Assembly: GCA_038045945.1 (NCBI GenBank)
Contig: JBBSXC010000001.1
Location: forward strand, 52,592-116,591
DNA: 64,000 nt
Reading direction: 5' to 3'
Origin: Nanobdellota archaeon
GTDB lineage: Archaea > Nanobdellota > Nanobdellia > Pacearchaeales > GW2011-AR1
Shown here: piece after piece, positions 27,983-56,026 of the stretch
Layout: every line of letters starts with the position of its first letter
Position numbering within the stretch: position 1 is the stretch's first letter
The notes under the pieces: model-generated
What the model was told of the DNA's origin: nothing
The model's input: only the letters and a program-made list of their open reading frames with translations
Databases searched by the model: none
Position numbers and translations under genes: made by a program

Positions 27983-28054
27983 TGGGTCCGGAGAGATTCG
28001 AACTCTCATCCTTCGCTCTGGAGGCGAAGAGACTAACCGTTATCCTACGGGCCC
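27983..28054 (-). tRNA. tRNA-Trp (anticodon CCA)
   Basis: acceptor GGGCCCG/CGGACCC (one C-A mismatch), anticodon stem TTCGC/GCGAA with loop CTCCAGA, T-arm GAGAG-TTCGAAT-CTCTC; no intron. Confidence 0.8.
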
Positions 28055-32784: not shown

Positions 32785-33945
32785 TTATTCTAATAATTCT
32801 TTTTCTCCTACTTTTTCTTCTTTTCCGCTTGTTAGGTCTTTTATTGTGAACTTTTTTTCTTTTATTTCCTTTTCACCTATGAATACTGCTTTGTTTATAC
32901 TGTAGGAATTTGCGTATTCTAGTGCTTTGCTTGGTTTTCCGTAGAATATTACGCATGATTTTCCTTGTGATCTTAATTTTTTTGTTATTTCTATTGTTTT
33001 TTCGTCTTGGTTTAGTGATACTACTAAGTATTGTGTTTTTGGTAATGGGATTTCTGCTAATACGCTTAGTCTTTCTATGCTTGTTCCAAAGCCGATGCCT
33101 TCAATATTGCCTATGATGTATCTTCCGCCGCCTAGTATTGTTTGTTTCATAACTTTAGATTTTATTTCAAAAATTGTTCCTGTGTAATAGCTAAGTCCTC
33201 TGGCTAGTGATGGGAGGAATTGTACTTCGAATCCGAATTGCTTGCAATATTCTTTTACTTCTTTTATTTCAGAGTAGTTTTTGTATTTTTCAAAGTAACT
33301 TTCTGGTTTGCTAAATATTTTTATTAATGATTCAGCACCGAATTTTTTAAGGTTTTTTGTTACTTCTTCGTCTGTTAGTTTGTCTAATTTGTCTATTTCT
33401 CTTATTACTTGTTTTCTGTCTTCTTCTTTTATTCCCTCTCCTGAGAGTATTTCGTCAATTAGTTTTCTATTGTTAAAGTATATGTTTACTTCCCCTAAAT
33501 TAAGTTTTTTTGTTATTTGGTTTGCCACGGATAATATTTCTGCGTCGCTTTTTATGTTAGAGTCTATTATGTCTACTTCGCATGTTGTAAACTGTCTAGT
33601 CCTGTTTTCTGCTACAGGTTCATCTCGGAATACTGGCCCTATTTGGTATCTTCTGTAAGGTAATTTTTTTCCTTGGGCTATTCTTTTAAGTTGGAATGTG
33701 AACTCGTATCTTAATGCTAGTTTTCTTTTCCCTTTGTCTGTAAGTTTGTATGTGTCGCTTACTGCTTCATCCGATGGGTTGTCTCCTCTCACGAATTCTT
33801 CATCCTCAATTATTGGTGTTTCTGCTGGTTCGAATCCGTAACTTCTAAAGATGTCCTCAACGATTCTTTGTGTTTCTTGACGCTTAAGAGCTTCTAGGCC
33901 AGTATAGTCTCTAAATCCTTTAACTGGTTCTTTTATGTTTGTCAT
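32785..33945 (-). CDS. hisS: histidyl-tRNA synthetase
   Basis: class II motifs: FRDYTG (motif 1 region), IGPVFRDEP..R (motif 2), GGGRY, anticodon-binding C-terminal; real start ATG at 33945, the longer ORF runs into the tRNA-His gene. Confidence 0.85.
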   Translation of the reverse strand: MTNIKEPVKGFRDYTGLEALKRQETQRIVEDIFRSYGFEPAETPIIEDEEFVRGDNPSDEAVSDTYKLTDKGKRKLALRYEFTFQLKRIAQGKKLPYRRYQIGPVFRDEPVAENRTRQFTTCEVDIIDSNIKSDAEILSVANQITKKLNLGEVNIYFNNRKLIDEILSGEGIKEEDRKQVIREIDKLDKLTDEEVTKNLKKFGAESLIKIFSKPESYFEKYKNYSEIKEVKEYCKQFGFEVQFLPSLARGLSYYTGTIFEIKSKVMKQTILGGGRYIIGNIEGIGFGTSIERLSVLAEIPLPKTQYLVVSLNQDEKTIEITKKLRSQGKSCVIFYGKPSKALEYANSYSINKAVFIGEKEIKEKKFTIKDLTSGKEEKVGEKELLE

Positions 33946-33970
33946 TTTTTCACCTTTTTTGTGATTTTGA

Positions 33971-34042
33971 AAGCGGAAGGAGGGAGTTGAACCCTCGTCT
34001 CGAGAGCCACAGTCTCGCATACTACCGTTGTACTACAACCGC
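33971..34042 (-). tRNA. tRNA-His (anticodon GTG) with encoded G-1; acceptor stem has two U-U mismatches
   Basis: G(-1)GCGGTTG..D-stem GTAC/GTAT..anticodon stem CGAGA/TCTCG with loop CTGTGGC..T-arm GAGGG-TTCAACT-CCCTC..CTTCCGC-T; sits 25 nt upstream of hisS on same strand. Confidence 0.6.
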
Positions 34043-34225
34043 CATATTTATTACACTTACGAGTAAGTGATTGTGAGGGTATAAAAGAATTGCTATTTGT
34101 TATGAAGTTGAAACTAGGGTTTTCTTTACTGCGAACAATGATTAAACTCCTGTAGTTTTGTGTTCATAGTATTGTTAGTGTTTTATCAGTTTATAAAATT
34201 ATTGTTTGGAAATTCTTGTAGATTT

Positions 34226-37903: not shown

Positions 37904-38041
37904 TGAGCCTATGCGGATTTGAACCGCAGACCTCCGGCTTTCTTAGCACGTATATGCCACTAAAGCATTAGTTCGCTCAAGTTGCTTGAGAGAACAACGT
38001 CTTATAAGACCGGCGTTCTAACCGGGCTGAACTATAGGCTC
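37904..38041 (-). tRNA. tRNA-Ile (anticodon TAT = UAU) containing a ~63-nt intron at the canonical 37/38 position
   Basis: acceptor GAGCCTA/TAGGCTC (perfect), D-arm GTTC-AGCCCGGTTA-GAAC, anticodon stem CCGGT...GCCGG with loop CTTATAA interrupted after position 37, T-arm TGCGG-TTCAAAT-CCGCA. Confidence 0.7.
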
Positions 38042-46917: not shown

Positions 46918-48216
46918 ATGGCTGATTTTAAGTTTAATTTTGGTGATTTTGTTAAGATTAAGGATAATAATGAATTTTTAGAGGGCGTTATACTTGAGAG
47001 TCCTGATAGCGAGTTTTATTTGTTGAAGCTTAATAGTGGTTATAATATTGGTGTTAGAAAAGAGAATATTGTTTCAATAGAGGTCGTTAATAGGAGGGTT
47101 GTGGAAAAAGTTGTTGATGTTAAGAAAAGTGTTGATAGTGGTCTTCCTAAAGTTGATATTATTATGACAGGTGGCACTATTAGTAGTCGTCTTGATTATA
47201 GAACTGGTGGTGTTACTAGTCTTACAAGCCCAGAGGACTTTTTTCGTTTTTACCCAGAAATTTTTAAGATTGCGAGCGTTAATAGGGTTGTTGTTCCTTT
47301 CATGAAGTTGTCAGAGAACATGGAGATTAAAGATTGGAAGATTATTGGTGAAGAAGTTGAGAAGAGTATGAATAATCCTGAGGTTGATGGTGTTATTGTT
47401 ACTCATGGTACTGATATTTTACATTATACTTCTTCTGCTTTATCTTTTTTCTTTCCTAAGCCTAATAAGCCTGTAGTTTTGACTTTTAGTCAGAAGAGTA
47501 CTGATAGGGCTTCTTCTGATGCTTCTTTGAATTTGCAGTGTGCTGCTAGACTTGCAGTATCAAATATTGCCGAGGTTGTTATTGTTGGTCATTCTAGTAC
47601 TAATGATGATTTTTGTTATGCTCTTCTGGGAACTAAGGTTAGGAAGATGCATTCTACTTCTAGAGATGCTTTCAAACCTGTGAATATTGATCCTTTAGTT
47701 AAGGTTTATTCTGATAGGATTGAGAAGTTGAATTATTTTAGAGAGAGACCTTCTAAGTCTGATAAGAGTGAAAAATTAAAGGGCGATATATTTATTAGTG
47801 AAAAGGTTGGCCTAATAAAGTTTTATCCTGGTCAAAGTTTTGAGATACTTGATTATTATTCTAAGATTTGTGAAGCTTTAATAATTGAAGGTGTTGGCGT
47901 TGGTAATGTTCCTGTTGAGGGTAATAATTCTTGGATTCCTTCTATTAAGAAGGCTATTAATAATGGTATGATGATTTTTATGACTTCTCAGACTGTTTTT
48001 GGTAGGACAGAGCCTTATGTTTATTCTACGGCTAGAGATTTGCAAAAAGCTGGCGTGATTTTTTTAGAGGATATGTTGAGTGAGGCTGCTTTTGTTAAGC
48101 TTTCTTGGGTTCTTGGTAATAAGAATTGGAATAAGGATAAAGAAACTATTAAGAAGAAGATGCTTGAGAATGTTAGTGGTGAGATTAATAATAGATTGCA
48201 GTTAAGGGGGGATTAG
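46918..48216 (+). CDS. gatD: Glu-tRNA(Gln) amidotransferase subunit D
   Basis: asparaginase-type DIIMTGGTISS motif, VVTHGTDIL, 432 aa with N-terminal extra domain typical of GatD. Confidence 0.85.
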   Translation: MADFKFNFGDFVKIKDNNEFLEGVILESPDSEFYLLKLNSGYNIGVRKENIVSIEVVNRRVVEKVVDVKKSVDSGLPKVDIIMTGGTISSRLDYRTGGVTSLTSPEDFFRFYPEIFKIASVNRVVVPFMKLSENMEIKDWKIIGEEVEKSMNNPEVDGVIVTHGTDILHYTSSALSFFFPKPNKPVVLTFSQKSTDRASSDASLNLQCAARLAVSNIAEVVIVGHSSTNDDFCYALLGTKVRKMHSTSRDAFKPVNIDPLVKVYSDRIEKLNYFRERPSKSDKSEKLKGDIFISEKVGLIKFYPGQSFEILDYYSKICEALIIEGVGVGNVPVEGNNSWIPSIKKAINNGMMIFMTSQTVFGRTEPYVYSTARDLQKAGVIFLEDMLSEAAFVKLSWVLGNKNWNKDKETIKKKMLENVSGEINNRLQLRGD

Positions 48217-50759: not shown

Positions 50760-52271
50760 ATGTCTAAAAAAGTTCCGAAGGATAAGAAGGTTTTAGAAGA
50801 AGCTGAGGAGAAAAAAGTTTTTGATAATGATGACTTAGTTCTTGATATGAAGTGTGGTATTGAGATTCATCAGCAGCTTAATACTAATAAATTGTTTTGC
50901 AATTGTCCTTCTGTTCTTCGTGCGGATAATCCTGATTTTAAAGTTATGAGGAAGTTACACTTGGTTGCTGGTGAGGGTGGCGTTGTTGATGCTGCTGCTG
51001 TTCATGAATCCAGTAAAGAAAAAACTTTTTTTTATGAGGGTTATAAGGATAATACTTGTCTTGTTGATTTGGATGAGGAGCCCCCTCATGATATTAATAA
51101 GGATGCTCTTAAGACTGGAGTACAAGTTGCACTCATGCTTAATTGTGAAATTTTACCTTTAACTCAGATTATGCGTAAGACTGTTATTGATGGTAGTAAT
51201 ACTAGCGGTTTTCAAAGGACTGTTCTTATTGCTAGAAATGGTTATGTTCAGACTGATAGCGGCAAGGTTAGGATTGATTCTGTTTGTTTAGAGGAGGATT
51301 CTTCAAGAACTATTAGCGAGGATAAGGGTGTTAAGATTTATCGTCTTGATAGGTTAGGCATTCCGCTTGTTGAGATTGCTACAGCTCCTGATATTAAGTC
51401 TCCAGAACAGGCTAAGGAAGTTGCTTTGTTTATTGGTGATATTTTGCGTTCTTCTAATGTTAAGCGAGGTATCGGTACTATTCGTCAGGATGTTAATGTT
51501 TCTGCTTGTGTTAATGGTTTGTGGGGTAGTCGTGTTGAGATTAAGGGTGTTCAGGATCCTTCACTTATAGAAAAATCTGCGAGTATTGAGGTTGATAGAC
51601 AGAAGACTTTGATTCTTGAGGGAAAATCTGTTGGTGAGGTAAGGAAAGCTAATGAGGATGGTACTAGTGATTTTTTAAGGCCTATGCCAGGTGCTGCTAG
51701 GATGTATCCTGAAACTGATCTTCCTCTTTTAAGGATTACTAGAGAAGAAATTAATGATTCTAAGAAGACTCTTCCTAAGCTTAAGTCTGCTATTAAGGGT
51801 GAACTTAGTAGTGCTGGTCTTAGTGATGAGATGATTAAGCTCGTTCTTGATAATAATAAGATTTCTGATTTGCAAGAATTACTTAAGGTTTATCAGAATC
51901 CTAATCTTATTGCTAAAATGCTTGTTTTGTGGCCTAGTGAAATTAGTAAGAAGACTAACGAAAAGTTAGATTCTTTGGATAAGAAGTTAACTCTTGATGT
52001 TTTAGAAACTGTTCTTTTTGCTATTAATACTAAGAAGCTTGATGAGAGTAACGCTAAAGAAGCCATTAGTAGGATTGTTTCGGGTATTCCTGTTAAGGAT
52101 GCTATAATTTTCCATAAGACTGAGAACTTGGAAGAGTTGATTATGAAAATTGTTAATTCTAAGCCAGGTCTTTCTAAGCAAGGTTATATGGGTTTGGTTA
52201 TGGCTCAGCTTAGGGGTAAGGCTTCTGGTAAAGAAGTTATGGATGTTCTTAACACTTTAATAAAAGATTAA
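50760..52271 (+). CDS. gatE: Glu-tRNA(Gln) amidotransferase subunit E
   Basis: MKCGIEIHQQLNTNKLFCNCPS (GatE-type G-x-EIHQQL...KLFC), AspRS-like insertion, C-terminal GatB/YqeY-like tail. Confidence 0.8.
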   Translation: MSKKVPKDKKVLEEAEEKKVFDNDDLVLDMKCGIEIHQQLNTNKLFCNCPSVLRADNPDFKVMRKLHLVAGEGGVVDAAAVHESSKEKTFFYEGYKDNTCLVDLDEEPPHDINKDALKTGVQVALMLNCEILPLTQIMRKTVIDGSNTSGFQRTVLIARNGYVQTDSGKVRIDSVCLEEDSSRTISEDKGVKIYRLDRLGIPLVEIATAPDIKSPEQAKEVALFIGDILRSSNVKRGIGTIRQDVNVSACVNGLWGSRVEIKGVQDPSLIEKSASIEVDRQKTLILEGKSVGEVRKANEDGTSDFLRPMPGAARMYPETDLPLLRITREEINDSKKTLPKLKSAIKGELSSAGLSDEMIKLVLDNNKISDLQELLKVYQNPNLIAKMLVLWPSEISKKTNEKLDSLDKKLTLDVLETVLFAINTKKLDESNAKEAISRIVSGIPVKDAIIFHKTENLEELIMKIVNSKPGLSKQGYMGLVMAQLRGKASGKEVMDVLNTLIKD

Positions 52272-53412: not shown

Positions 53413-54687
53413 ATGGAAAGAAAAATGATTAGCGATTTGAAGGAGGGCGAGCATTCTTTGATTAAGGGTTGGGTTCATGAAATTCGTGATTTGTCTAAGA
53501 TGAAGTTTATTCTACTTAGGGATTCTTCGGGTATTGTCCAGTGCATTATTAAGGATGATAAGTTGATGAAGGATTCTTCTAGCATTAGTTTGGAGAGCGT
53601 TATTGAGATTGAAGGAGCGGTGAATAAGGCTTCTGTTAAGGCTGATCTTGCTCGTAAAGATGTTGAACTTCATGCTAAGTCTATTAAGATTCTTAGTTTG
53701 GCTGAAACTTTACCTATTCAAGTTAATGAAAAAACAATAACTACTGAATTACCAACAAGGCTTGATCATCGTTCTTTAGATGTTAGGAAGCCTAAAATTT
53801 CAGCTATTTTTAAGATTCAGAGTGAAATAGCTAATTCTTTCAGAAAGTTTTTTTATAAGAATGGTTTTACTGAGATTCAACCACCTTTTATTATTGGAGC
53901 AGCAAGCGAGGGTGGAAGTGAAGTTTTTGAGGTTAAATATTTTGATAAGAAGGCTTACTTAGCTCAAAGTCCTCAATTGTATAAACAAATGATGGCTTGT
54001 GCTTTTGAGAAAGTTTTTGCTTTAGGCCCTGCTTGGAGAGCAGAGAAGCATAATACTACTAGACACATTAATGAGATAAGGCAAATGGATGTAGAAGTAG
54101 CCTTCACCGACCAAATGCAAATAATGAAGTTGCAAGAGGAGGTTTTACAATTCATAATTCAGAACGTTAAAGAAAGATGTTCAAGAGAACTAGAAATATT
54201 GGGAAGAAGTGATATAAAAGCTCCTAAGGGTGTATACTTACATTATGAGGATGCTATTAAGAAGTCTGGTGGAAAAATTGGTGAGGATTTTACTCCTGAA
54301 CAGGAAAGGAAGCTTTGTGACATGTACCCTGGGGACATAGTGTTTACTCATTCTTGGCCTACAAGCATTAAAGTTTTTTATATAATGCCTAAGGATGGTA
54401 AGAAGAATGCTACTGAAAGTTGTGGTTTTGATTCTTTGTATGGCGGCGTTGAGATTTCTAGTGGTGGTCAACGTATTCACATTCCAGAATTATTAATTGA
54501 TAGGATTAAAGCTAAGGGTTTGAACCCTAAAGATTTTAAAACTTATATTGATAGTTTCCGTTACGGTGCTCCACCTCATAGCGGTTGGGCTTTAGGTCTT
54601 GAAAGACTTACCCAAATGATTTGCGGTCTTGATAATATTAAAGAAGCAACATTATTCCCTAGAGACAGGGATAGGTTGACACCTTAG
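53413..54687 (+). CDS. aspS: aspartyl-tRNA synthetase, archaeal type
   Basis: OB-fold N-terminus, class IIb motifs FRAEKHNTTRHINE, GGVEISSGGQRIH, C-terminal FPRDRDRLTP. Confidence 0.85.
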   Translation: MERKMISDLKEGEHSLIKGWVHEIRDLSKMKFILLRDSSGIVQCIIKDDKLMKDSSSISLESVIEIEGAVNKASVKADLARKDVELHAKSIKILSLAETLPIQVNEKTITTELPTRLDHRSLDVRKPKISAIFKIQSEIANSFRKFFYKNGFTEIQPPFIIGAASEGGSEVFEVKYFDKKAYLAQSPQLYKQMMACAFEKVFALGPAWRAEKHNTTRHINEIRQMDVEVAFTDQMQIMKLQEEVLQFIIQNVKERCSRELEILGRSDIKAPKGVYLHYEDAIKKSGGKIGEDFTPEQERKLCDMYPGDIVFTHSWPTSIKVFYIMPKDGKKNATESCGFDSLYGGVEISSGGQRIHIPELLIDRIKAKGLNPKDFKTYIDSFRYGAPPHSGWALGLERLTQMICGLDNIKEATLFPRDRDRLTP

Positions 54688-54691
54688 AACC

Positions 54692-56026
54692 ATGGTTAAA
54701 AAAGTAGAAAAAGTTTCTGTTGATACTCACAGCGAATCATTCATTAGTATTTCTGATGCTATCAAGCAAGGTTCTGGTCGTGTTTCTATTAGAGGTTGGG
54801 TTTATCGTGAGAGGGATGGAAAAGAATTAAGATTCATAGTCCTAAGAGACTCAAGTAATATAATACAGTGCGTGTTGAAAAAGGAAAAGTTTGAAAAACA
54901 ATGGGGAGAGATAAGTAAAATAGGAATTGAAAGCTCACTAGAAATAGTTGGGGAAATAAAAGCAGACGCTCGAGCACCAACAGGTTACGAAATATCAGCA
55001 GAAAAAATAATAATAGTGCAAATAGCTGAGGATTTCCCCATTAACAAAGATTTGAACGAGGAGTTGCTTGGAGACAGAAGGCATTTGTGGCTTCGTAGTA
55101 GAAAGATGACTTCTATTATGAAGATTAGAAGCAGGTATATACAGGCTAGAGAAGCATTCTTTCATAAAGAGGGATTTTATCGTTTTGATACTCCTATACT
55201 TCAACCAACACAAAGCGAAGGTGGAAGTACAGTTTTTGAAGTAAAATATTATGATAAAAAAACGTTTTTAGCCCAAACATGGCAGTTATACGGCGAATCA
55301 GCAATTTTCGCTCTTGAAAAAGTTTACAATATGGGTCCAACTTTCAGGGCTGAGAAGAGTAATACTTCAAGACATTTATCTGAATTTTGGATGGCAGAAG
55401 TAGAAGTGGCCTGGTGGGGTCTTAAAGAAATATCTGAGTTTGCAAAAAAAGAATTAAAACATTGTATAAGCATAGTGGTAAAAGAATGTGAGGAAGAGTT
55501 TAAGATATTAGGAGTGGATGCAAAAAAATTGTTAGAGATGACAAAGAAAGAGTGGCCTACAATTAAGTATCGTGATGCACTAAAATTAATAAAAGAAAAA
55601 GATGGGATGACAGTACCGTTCGGCAAGGATTTAAGGACAATTGAAGAACAAACAATAATGAAACATTTTGATACTCCTGTTGTTGTTACTCATTATCCTA
55701 AAGAAATAATGGCTTTTTATAAGCCGAGTGACCCAAAAAGTCCTGATGAAGCATTATGCTTTGATATGTTAGCTCCACAGATAGGCATAGAGATAGTTGG
55801 AGGAAGCCAAAGAGACTTGAATGTTGAGGAGATGTCAAAAAAACTAAAAGCTGATGGTGAAGACCCAAAAAATTATCAGTTTTATTTTGATACTAGGAAG
55901 TATGGAAGTGTGCCTCATTCAGGATACGGAGTAGGAATCGAGAGGGTAATACAGTGGATTTGTGGTCTTGAAAGTATTAAGGATGCTATTGCCTTCCCTA
56001 GGACTATGAATAGGACAACTCCTTAA
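54692..56026 (+). CDS. asnS: asparaginyl-tRNA synthetase
   Basis: FRAEKSNTSRHLSEFWMAEVEVAW (AsnRS-specific SNTSRHL.EFWM), C-terminal FPRTMNRTTP. Confidence 0.85.
   Translation: MVKKVEKVSVDTHSESFISISDAIKQGSGRVSIRGWVYRERDGKELRFIVLRDSSNIIQCVLKKEKFEKQWGEISKIGIESSLEIVGEIKADARAPTGYEISAEKIIIVQIAEDFPINKDLNEELLGDRRHLWLRSRKMTSIMKIRSRYIQAREAFFHKEGFYRFDTPILQPTQSEGGSTVFEVKYYDKKTFLAQTWQLYGESAIFALEKVYNMGPTFRAEKSNTSRHLSEFWMAEVEVAWWGLKEISEFAKKELKHCISIVVKECEEEFKILGVDAKKLLEMTKKEWPTIKYRDALKLIKEKDGMTVPFGKDLRTIEEQTIMKHFDTPVVVTHYPKEIMAFYKPSDPKSPDEALCFDMLAPQIGIEIVGGSQRDLNVEEMSKKLKADGEDPKNYQFYFDTRKYGSVPHSGYGVGIERVIQWICGLESIKDAIAFPRTMNRTTP

Follow-up and report, generated by a model that had tools for sequence, protein, structure and literature searches.

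Can a tRNA gene with two mismatched pairs in its acceptor stem be a working gene? The question is raised by the tRNA-His gene that stands directly upstream of hisS, the gene for histidyl-tRNA synthetase (HisRS), in a 64,000-nt stretch of DNA from a Nanobdellota archaeon (the window; AT-rich, about 33-35% G+C). Comparison with related loci indicates that this gene truly breaks the rules for tRNA-His, in a conserved and specific way, and that its genomic coupling to hisS is conserved too. We consider it highly probable that it is a genuine, functional tRNA-His of a genome-reduced DPANN archaeon and the first gene of a conserved tRNA-His/hisS unit.

The tRNA-His(GUG) gene runs from G-1 to U73 at 33972..34043 on the minus strand, as do all window features below unless stated, and was placed with ARAGORN (call span 33971..34043), Rfam and an alignment. 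The Rfam model RF00005 matches 34042..33972 with 60.1 bits (gathering score 29, E = 1.7e-10), the third score among the seven tRNAs of the window and thus mid-range, and marks just two non-standard pairs, 5:68 and 6:67. As read from the sequence, the acceptor stem is GCGGUUG/CUUCCGC, with U5.U68 at 34038/33977 and U6.U67 at 34037/33978. G-1 is 34043 and G1 is 34042, the anticodon GUG (also called by ARAGORN) is at 34010..34008, and the discriminator U73 at 33972 forms a G.U wobble with G-1. The D-loop is ordinary, the T-loop is TTCAACT (UUCAACU), the universal tRNA positions are all retained, and CCA is not encoded. The original prediction had named this tRNA with its encoded G-1, its two U.U pairs and U73, and ARAGORN, RF00005 and our reading of the sequence agree on each of these; the end that it gave, 34042, is one base short of G-1.

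Judged as a family member, the gene scores above the model threshold and has the GUG anticodon and the encoded G-1; it departs from the family norm in having U73 instead of C73 and an acceptor stem that is not fully paired. None of the marks of a tRNA pseudogene (low score, lost universal positions, no constraint in relatives) was found. An independent Logan assembly of the window region, L082, is base-for-base the same over the tRNA, the leader and the spacer. Hence, the mismatches are not an assembly error. In the single-sequence minimum free energy fold (z = 0.4), the stem comes apart at the U.U pairs; since such folding is uninformative for a tRNA, we relied on covariance models and comparative pair counts.

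The adjoining hisS gene (32785..33945, 386 aa) was identified by Pfam, NCBI protein identity and alignment of homologues. Its product carries PF13393 (E = 2e-34) and the HGTP anticodon-binding domain PF03129 (E = 2e-7), its nearest solved structures are HisRS, and it has the domains of a class IIa histidyl-tRNA synthetase. The hisS ATG is at 33945, with GGTGA (33954..33950) 5 nt before it; the 386-aa protein from this ATG is identical to an NCBI protein, and its N-terminus aligns with 27 homologues. A 411-aa open reading frame at 32785..34020 begins at an ATG inside the tRNA-His D-arm, so that a spurious 25-codon N-terminal extension (33946..34020) reads through the 3' two-thirds of the tRNA gene; this extension is in none of the 27 aligned homologues. 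The ENA gene call uses the 411-aa read-through frame, and the NCBI protein has the correct 386 aa. Both the start at 33945 behind ggtga and the artefactual nature of the longer frame had been proposed at the outset, and the NCBI protein and the homologues bear this out. As an aside on annotation, several members of this HisRS clade are named 'ATP phosphoribosyltransferase regulatory subunit' (HisZ) at NCBI and elsewhere, despite their anticodon-binding domain.

Are the mismatches peculiar to this one gene? The closest relatives of the window's archaeon are Pacearchaeota/Woesearchaeota metagenome-assembled genomes, and our comparison set holds 80 loci whose HisRS is 53-65% identical to the window's enzyme. 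ARAGORN found an intron-less tRNA-His upstream of hisS and on the same strand in 52 of the 80. A custom covariance model built from this intron-less set added 11 tRNA-His with canonical 37/38 introns of 17-96 nt (L003, L019, L023, L028, L030, L034, L044, L049, L050, L053 and L064), which make up 11 of the 63 hisS-linked genes; ARAGORN without intron search misses these 11, and with -i it names them Tyr, Leu or Ser. Pairs were counted in an alignment of 53 tRNA-His genes (the window and 52 relatives; 52 distinct sequences) and in an enlarged set of 65, which adds the intron-containing genes and the closest relative whose DNA was read, L081 (HisRS 75% identical to the window's).

The cloverleaf finds strong support in the 53 aligned genes: 92.7% of stem cells are paired compared with 77.9% in shuffles, double compensatory changes occur at 17 of 22 pairs, and register-slid controls collapse. 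Pairs 1:72 to 4:69 and 7:66 are paired in 100% of the aligned genes, and the two positions mismatched in the window stand out, with 6:67 unpaired in 41 and 5:68 in 24 of the 52 distinct sequences. In the enlarged set, 6:67 is U.U in 49/65 and C.U in 2, 5:68 is U.U in 31/65, both positions are U.U in 27/65, and at least one of them is non-standard in 55/65 (U.U, with C.U in two); A.A was never seen at either position. L081 has the same acceptor stem, GCGGUUG/CUUCCGC, and the same U73 as the window, and its anticodon stem has changed from CGAGA/UCUCG to CAAGG/CCUUG, with the D stem likewise changed in a compensatory way. No U.U pair occurs in the 15 non-His tRNAs of the set, and two of them have C.A: the window's tRNA-Trp (27983-28054) has a C4.A69 acceptor mismatch where the relative L004 has U4.G69, and a tRNA-Ala with C6.A67 is found in L036 (4276-4348). 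As a separate observation on the same genes, six of the 65 tRNA-His (L005, L010, L021, L027, L034 and L050) have a T-loop UCCGAUU or UCCGACU, in which C55 replaces the universal U55 (pseudouridine).

How old is this state? We sampled metagenome loci from more distant HisRS lineages, 30-47% identical to the window's, as outgroups. Of the 11 tRNA-His that precede hisS on its own strand in this sample, nine are fully paired (the second copy of L085, L088, L095-L098, L100, L101 and L107). U6.U67 is still present at 41-44% HisRS identity, in L089 and in one of the two L085 copies, and the hisS-adjacent tRNA-His at 30-37% identity (L095-L098, L100, L101 and L107) are all fully paired. Hence, as far as these alignments tell, the U.U pairs are a derived trait that marks the tRNA-His of this archaeal radiation. 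Among these distant genes, the intron-containing tRNA-His of L101 (1483-1577; HisRS 35% identical) appears to encode A-1 paired with U73.

The second half of the question concerns the neighbor, since a tRNA directly upstream of its cognate synthetase gene may share its transcript. In 63 of the 80 relatives, tRNA-His precedes hisS on the same strand, and 5 of the 17 without this linkage have less than 650 nt of upstream sequence. Other neighbors are kept less well: the downstream gene for ScpA is retained in 29/80, and the window's upstream protein neighbors in 0/80. The linkage is also present where HisRS is only 30-37% identical. In the window, the spacer between tRNA and hisS is 26 nt long (33946..33971) and contains the Shine-Dalgarno (SD)-like GGTGA described above; the hisS ATG follows N73 at 7-30 nt in 14 loci (13 relatives and the window), at 7-64 nt in 27 (25 relatives, L081 and the window) and at 7-22 nt in 10. 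GAGGTGA or GGAGG precedes hisS in many relatives. At about 18 loci, a small gene for a low-molecular-weight (LMW) phosphatase (PF01451) or a GNAT protein lies between the two, starting about 11-25 nt after tRNA-His and overlapping hisS by 4 nt; examples are L001 2088-2504 (LMW phosphatase-like) and L080 2049-2489 (GNAT acetyltransferase), and the inserted LMW phosphatase-like genes have the motif CKYNxFRS.

The gaps of 7-22 nt are too short for an archaeal promoter. Hence, the simplest account of those loci, and of the window, is a shared transcript from which the tRNA is excised, and tRNA-His is probably co-transcribed with hisS. Co-transcription had been suggested in the original prediction from the order of the genes; it was a reasonable suggestion, and the linkage at 63/80 loci and the 7-30-nt spacers at 14 loci strengthen it. 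Pairing of a tRNA with a synthetase gene is not a theme of the window, as its other six tRNAs precede unrelated or convergent genes. Two further ideas about the junction were rejected: that CCUCC in the 3' strand of the tRNA sequesters the hisS ribosome-binding site as an anti-SD, because this T-stem sequence is not conserved among relatives, and that the CTTNAA trailer is a hisS TATA box, because it lies too close to the ATG at loci with 7-17-nt spacers.

Where would such a transcript begin, and how would G-1 be kept? A TATA-box-like sequence, TTTTATAC (34079..34086), lies about 40 nt upstream of G-1, the same motif is found at the same place in L081, and CTTTTTATACC-type motifs stand upstream of most related tRNA-His genes. 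By its position, TTTTATAC is likely the promoter of the tRNA-His(-hisS) unit, and its spacing predicts a 5' leader of about 12 nt that would need cleavage. At the modal class of 15 loci (e.g. L011, L012, L031, L052 and L058), the TATA-like box is centered about 26-27 nt before G-1, which predicts leaderless initiation at or next to G-1, as in Nanoarchaeum equitans; in the window and L081, the box lies about 12 nt farther upstream of G-1 than in this class. The bases directly 5' of G-1, A-3 U-2 (34044..34045), are invariant in all 53 aligned upstream regions, and G-1 is encoded in 53/53. In non-His tRNAs, U is the commonest base at -1 (9/15). Since U stands just before position 1 there and at -2 here, the signal appears shifted by one base, with the 5' end set between U-2 and G-1. 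The pattern fits cleavage or transcription initiation between these two bases, either of which would leave G-1 on tRNA-His. No RNase P subunit, Thg1, RNase Z or CCA-adding enzyme is in the Pfam annotation across the window.

Is the enzyme suited to such a substrate? The motif 2 loop of the window's HisRS is FRDEPVAENRTRQF, with Ala at the position of E. coli Gln118; aligned with human HisRS, the loop is eukaryote-like and two residues shorter. In the clade, the residue at this position is S, T, A, K, N, G or R, with Q in 2/63, and N73 among the 65 tRNA-His is C in 47, U in 16 and A in 2. In E. coli HisRS, C73 is read by Gln118 of motif 2, eukaryotic HisRS has Ala-Met-Thr in place of that Gln, and the N. 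equitans enzyme tolerates N73 changes (PMC10100707). A HisRS lacking the C73-reading Gln fits the variable N73 of the clade, as judged from the two alignments; no link was found between N73 (C, U or A) and the motif 2 loop residue among the clade's HisRS.

Put together, these observations suggest a path from gene to charged tRNA. Transcription would start from the TATA-like box about 40 nt upstream. The leader would then be removed between U-2 and G-1, and G-1, given its conservation, would stay and form the G.U wobble with U73. A cut after U73 would free tRNA-His and leave a hisS mRNA with a 26-nt leader containing GGUGA. CCA would be added later because none is encoded. The compact HisRS would charge the product mainly through G-1, the 5' phosphate and the anticodon, to go by work on N. 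equitans and Thermus thermophilus, and the U.U pairs would remain U.U in the mature tRNA-His.

Several points weigh against this picture of a functional, constrained tRNA-His at the head of a shared transcript. Fully paired acceptor stems occur in 10 of the 65 tRNA-His, at scattered positions on the tree; hence, the U.U pairs are not indispensable. The parsimony counts given below come from a quick neighbor-joining tree. The outgroup locus L085 has two tRNA-His(GUG) genes upstream of hisS (278-350 and 1112-1183), one with U6.U67 and G4.U69 and the other fully paired. A second tRNA-His was absent from the about 76 kb scanned here of a contig of at least 445 kb; none lies within 2.5 kb of hisS in the 80 relatives. 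Co-transcription does not hold throughout: at some loci with 46-88-nt spacers, TATA-like boxes are placed for a separate, possibly leaderless hisS mRNA. In the window itself, a weak promoter may be formed by CTTTTCAAAA, which overlaps the 3' end of tRNA-His at a distance of about 25 nt from the ATG.

The alternative that survives best concerns the meaning of the U.U pairs. They may be functionless: drift and AT pressure would have fixed them a single time, in a symbiont ancestor with a small population, and, being close to neutral in an 8-bp stem rich in GC, they would now be undergoing slow repair. The scattered, fully paired stems would be expected from this, as would the behavior of 5:68, which flips among U.U, A-U and U-A with about 23 changes; C.A mismatches in two other tRNAs also point this way, and in the T. 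thermophilus complex HisRS touches neither 5:68 nor 6:67. Against it, single U-to-A changes would be repairs, yet U6.U67 stands in 49/65 genes whose HisRS differ by 35-47%, and the other stems of these same tRNA-His have fixed many double substitutions. By parsimony on the HisRS tree, 6:67 was mismatched at the root and changed 8 times, and 5:68 changed 23 times, about threefold more; A.A never appears, and the U.U mismatches are limited to tRNA-His and to two fixed positions. We regard this alternative as a serious one, though the less probable account.

We prefer to read 6:67 as constrained, since one U-to-A change would repair either pair and yet U6.U67 persists. On the pair counts, U6.U67 is the consensus state of the clade's tRNA-His, and probably also an ancestral and constrained one. 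The other position, 5:68, reads as nearly neutral among U.U, A-U and U-A, and U.U there would be an allowed intermediate, because A.A never occurs. Nearest-neighbor energies are -7.2 kcal/mol for the window's 8-bp acceptor helix, about -11.8 to -12.0 kcal/mol for its repaired versions and, as a median, -10.1 for non-His 7-bp stems, so that the U.U pairs cost about 4.6 kcal/mol of the predicted stability of this GC-rich 8-bp helix. The helix is otherwise extra-long and very rich in GC, and on these energies the U.U pairs soften it. Our preferred guess is that the softened helix tunes geometry or stability for definition of the 5' end at -1 or for handling of the acceptor end. T. thermophilus HisRS contacts only 70-76 on the 3' strand and G-1/G1 on the 5' side (PMC4357726). 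Hence, by analogy, HisRS is unlikely to read the U.U pairs at 5:68 and 6:67 directly.

The next alternative concerns the transcript. In this account, hisS would have its own promoter at CTTTTCAAAA and a leaderless mRNA, and the linkage would be merely inherited gene order. The distance from the TATA-like run to the ATG does fit archaeal spacing, and clearer TATA-like boxes are found in the 46-88-nt spacers of L046, L054, L075 and the outgroup L085, where a CTTTTTATACC box lies between the second tRNA-His and hisS. However, GGTGA stands 5 nt before the ATG, with similar sequences in relatives, and would be useless in a leaderless mRNA; the 7-22-nt spacers at 10 loci leave no room for a promoter; and the linkage outlasts every protein neighbor. 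We hold a separate hisS promoter to be unlikely, and co-transcription with tRNA-His stays the better account of the window.

A more ambitious reading joins two claims: that U6.U67 (with U5.U68) is a positively selected determinant of tRNA-His specific to the clade, and that the tRNA-His/hisS unit is autoregulated. As a determinant, the pairs could make the eukaryote-like archaeal RNase P cut at -1 and not at +1, or could spare a transcript initiated at G-1; or they could signal identity or geometry, in an indirect way, to the compact, Gln-less HisRS. As to regulation, HisRS would bind unprocessed tRNA-His just ahead of its own ribosome-binding site, and the geometry that bears on this is an SD 18-22 nt past the tRNA-His 3' end. 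We consider the joint reading improbable. If true, archaea would have a form of control that parallels the T-box or the ThrRS operator and works with a real tRNA.

Two explanations can be dismissed briefly. That the gene is a decaying pseudogene, as was asked at the outset, with the real tRNA-His elsewhere in the genome, could appeal to the two mismatches and the non-canonical U73, to a genome seen in part and to the two tRNA-His genes of L085; it is very improbable, as RF00005 accepts the fold with a mid-range score, the universal positions are kept, covariation extends over 53 genes, the mismatched stem is the clade consensus, L081 shows compensatory changes and not decay, no accelerated decay is seen in relatives, and no second copy lies within 2.5 kb in the 80 relatives or in about 76 kb here. 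Equally little weight goes to post-transcriptional correction, by base editing or by resynthesis of the 5' strand with a Thg1-like 3'-5' polymerase, although archaea encode Thg1-like proteins and 3'-5' polymerases are known to repair the acceptor stems of mismatched mitochondrial tRNAs (reviews PMC6471195 and PMC4284800). Editing had also been raised in the original prediction, but the known deaminase and aminase conversions (C-to-U, A-to-I or U-to-C) cannot make U.U standard. Many relatives encode A5, or A67/A68, so that a genomic route is open, and no Thg1 family match occurs among the genes called across the window. Known 5' acceptor-strand repair, moreover, covers positions 1-3 and not 5-6.

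What would a functional tRNA-His of this kind mean? The acceptor end of tRNA-His is the most unusual among tRNAs, and its rules (G-1, C73/A73, a regular 8-bp helix) are taken to hold almost everywhere. In the large, uncultured archaeal radiation described here, one or two U.U pairs lie in mid-helix, N73 drifts among C, U and A, and HisRS is without the residue that reads C73. This radiation offers a natural system for asking what share of tRNA-His identity lies in helix geometry and what share in base identity, how archaea with a eukaryote-like RNase P preserve an encoded G-1, and why a tRNA stays coupled to a synthetase gene over very long evolutionary distances. There are practical consequences as well: gene callers extend hisS through the tRNA, to 411 aa instead of 386, and about one in six of these tRNA-His are overlooked or misnamed by tRNA finders that run without an intron model.

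Other translation genes of the window deserve mention. A tRNA-Ile with the anticodon UAU and a 64-nt intron after position 37 lies at 37904-38041; it was detected by Rfam and not by ARAGORN with default settings. Archaea rarely read AUA with a UAU tRNA; N. equitans and Korarchaeum are known cases, and such a tRNA would imply that there is no agmatidine pathway. On the plus strand, two adjacent genes at 53413-54687 and 54692-56026 encode class IIb synthetases of the Asp/Asn type, and GatD- and GatE-like genes lie at 46918-48216 and 50760-52271, in a neighborhood rich in translation genes. The gene content of this region suggests indirect formation of Gln-tRNA.

How does the locus compare with known systems? 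In full-text searches of papers outside subscription-only journals and in a 2023 identity review, we found neither a published U.U pair in a tRNA-His acceptor stem nor a published tRNA-His/hisS unit in DPANN archaea. Canonical prokaryotic tRNA-His shares with the window's gene the GUG anticodon, the encoded G-1, the extra -1:73 pair, ordinary D, anticodon and T arms and a pyrimidine 5' of G-1; there, G-1 is paired with C73 in an 8-bp acceptor helix and is kept by an unusual RNase P cleavage. Unlike the canonical form, the genes described here have consecutive U.U pairs at 5:68 and 6:67 clade-wide, U73 (in 16/65 clade genes) and no CCA.

Co-transcription of a tRNA with a protein gene is known from pylT-pylS in Methanosarcina, the tRNA-tufB operon of E. 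coli and the tRNA punctuation of mitochondria. With these, the tRNA-His/hisS unit shares a tRNA directly upstream on the same strand, so that excision would define the 5' end of the mRNA, and with pylT-pylS it shares a cognate synthetase as partner. It differs in serving a standard amino acid, in its very wide archaeal conservation and in the insertions of LMW phosphatase and GNAT genes.

N. equitans belongs to the same broad archaeal phylum, and in part of the relatives the promoter spacing predicts, as there, initiation at or near G-1. Its HisRS has G-1 and the 5' phosphate as main identity element and is relaxed about N73, and its tRNAs are leaderless and made without RNase P, with the motif 2 Gln kept and C73 (PMC10100707). 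Unlike N. equitans, the window has a predicted leader of about 12 nt, a HisRS without this Gln, a clade in which N73 varies, and U.U in the acceptor stem. In Alphaproteobacteria, tRNA-His is without G-1 and HisRS has co-evolved, as cited in PMC5370408. The likeness is a lineage-specific break with the acceptor-end rules of tRNA-His together with an altered HisRS motif 2; the difference is that G-1 is kept here and that the change lies at 5:68, 6:67 and N73, not at -1 or 1:72. The tRNAs of mitochondria and endosymbionts resemble the present case in coming from AT-rich, reduced genomes and in having acceptor-stem U.U pairs. Their mismatches, some of which are edited, are spread across numerous tRNAs and positions; here, by contrast, the mismatches belong to one tRNA and two positions and have been retained while the other stems covary.

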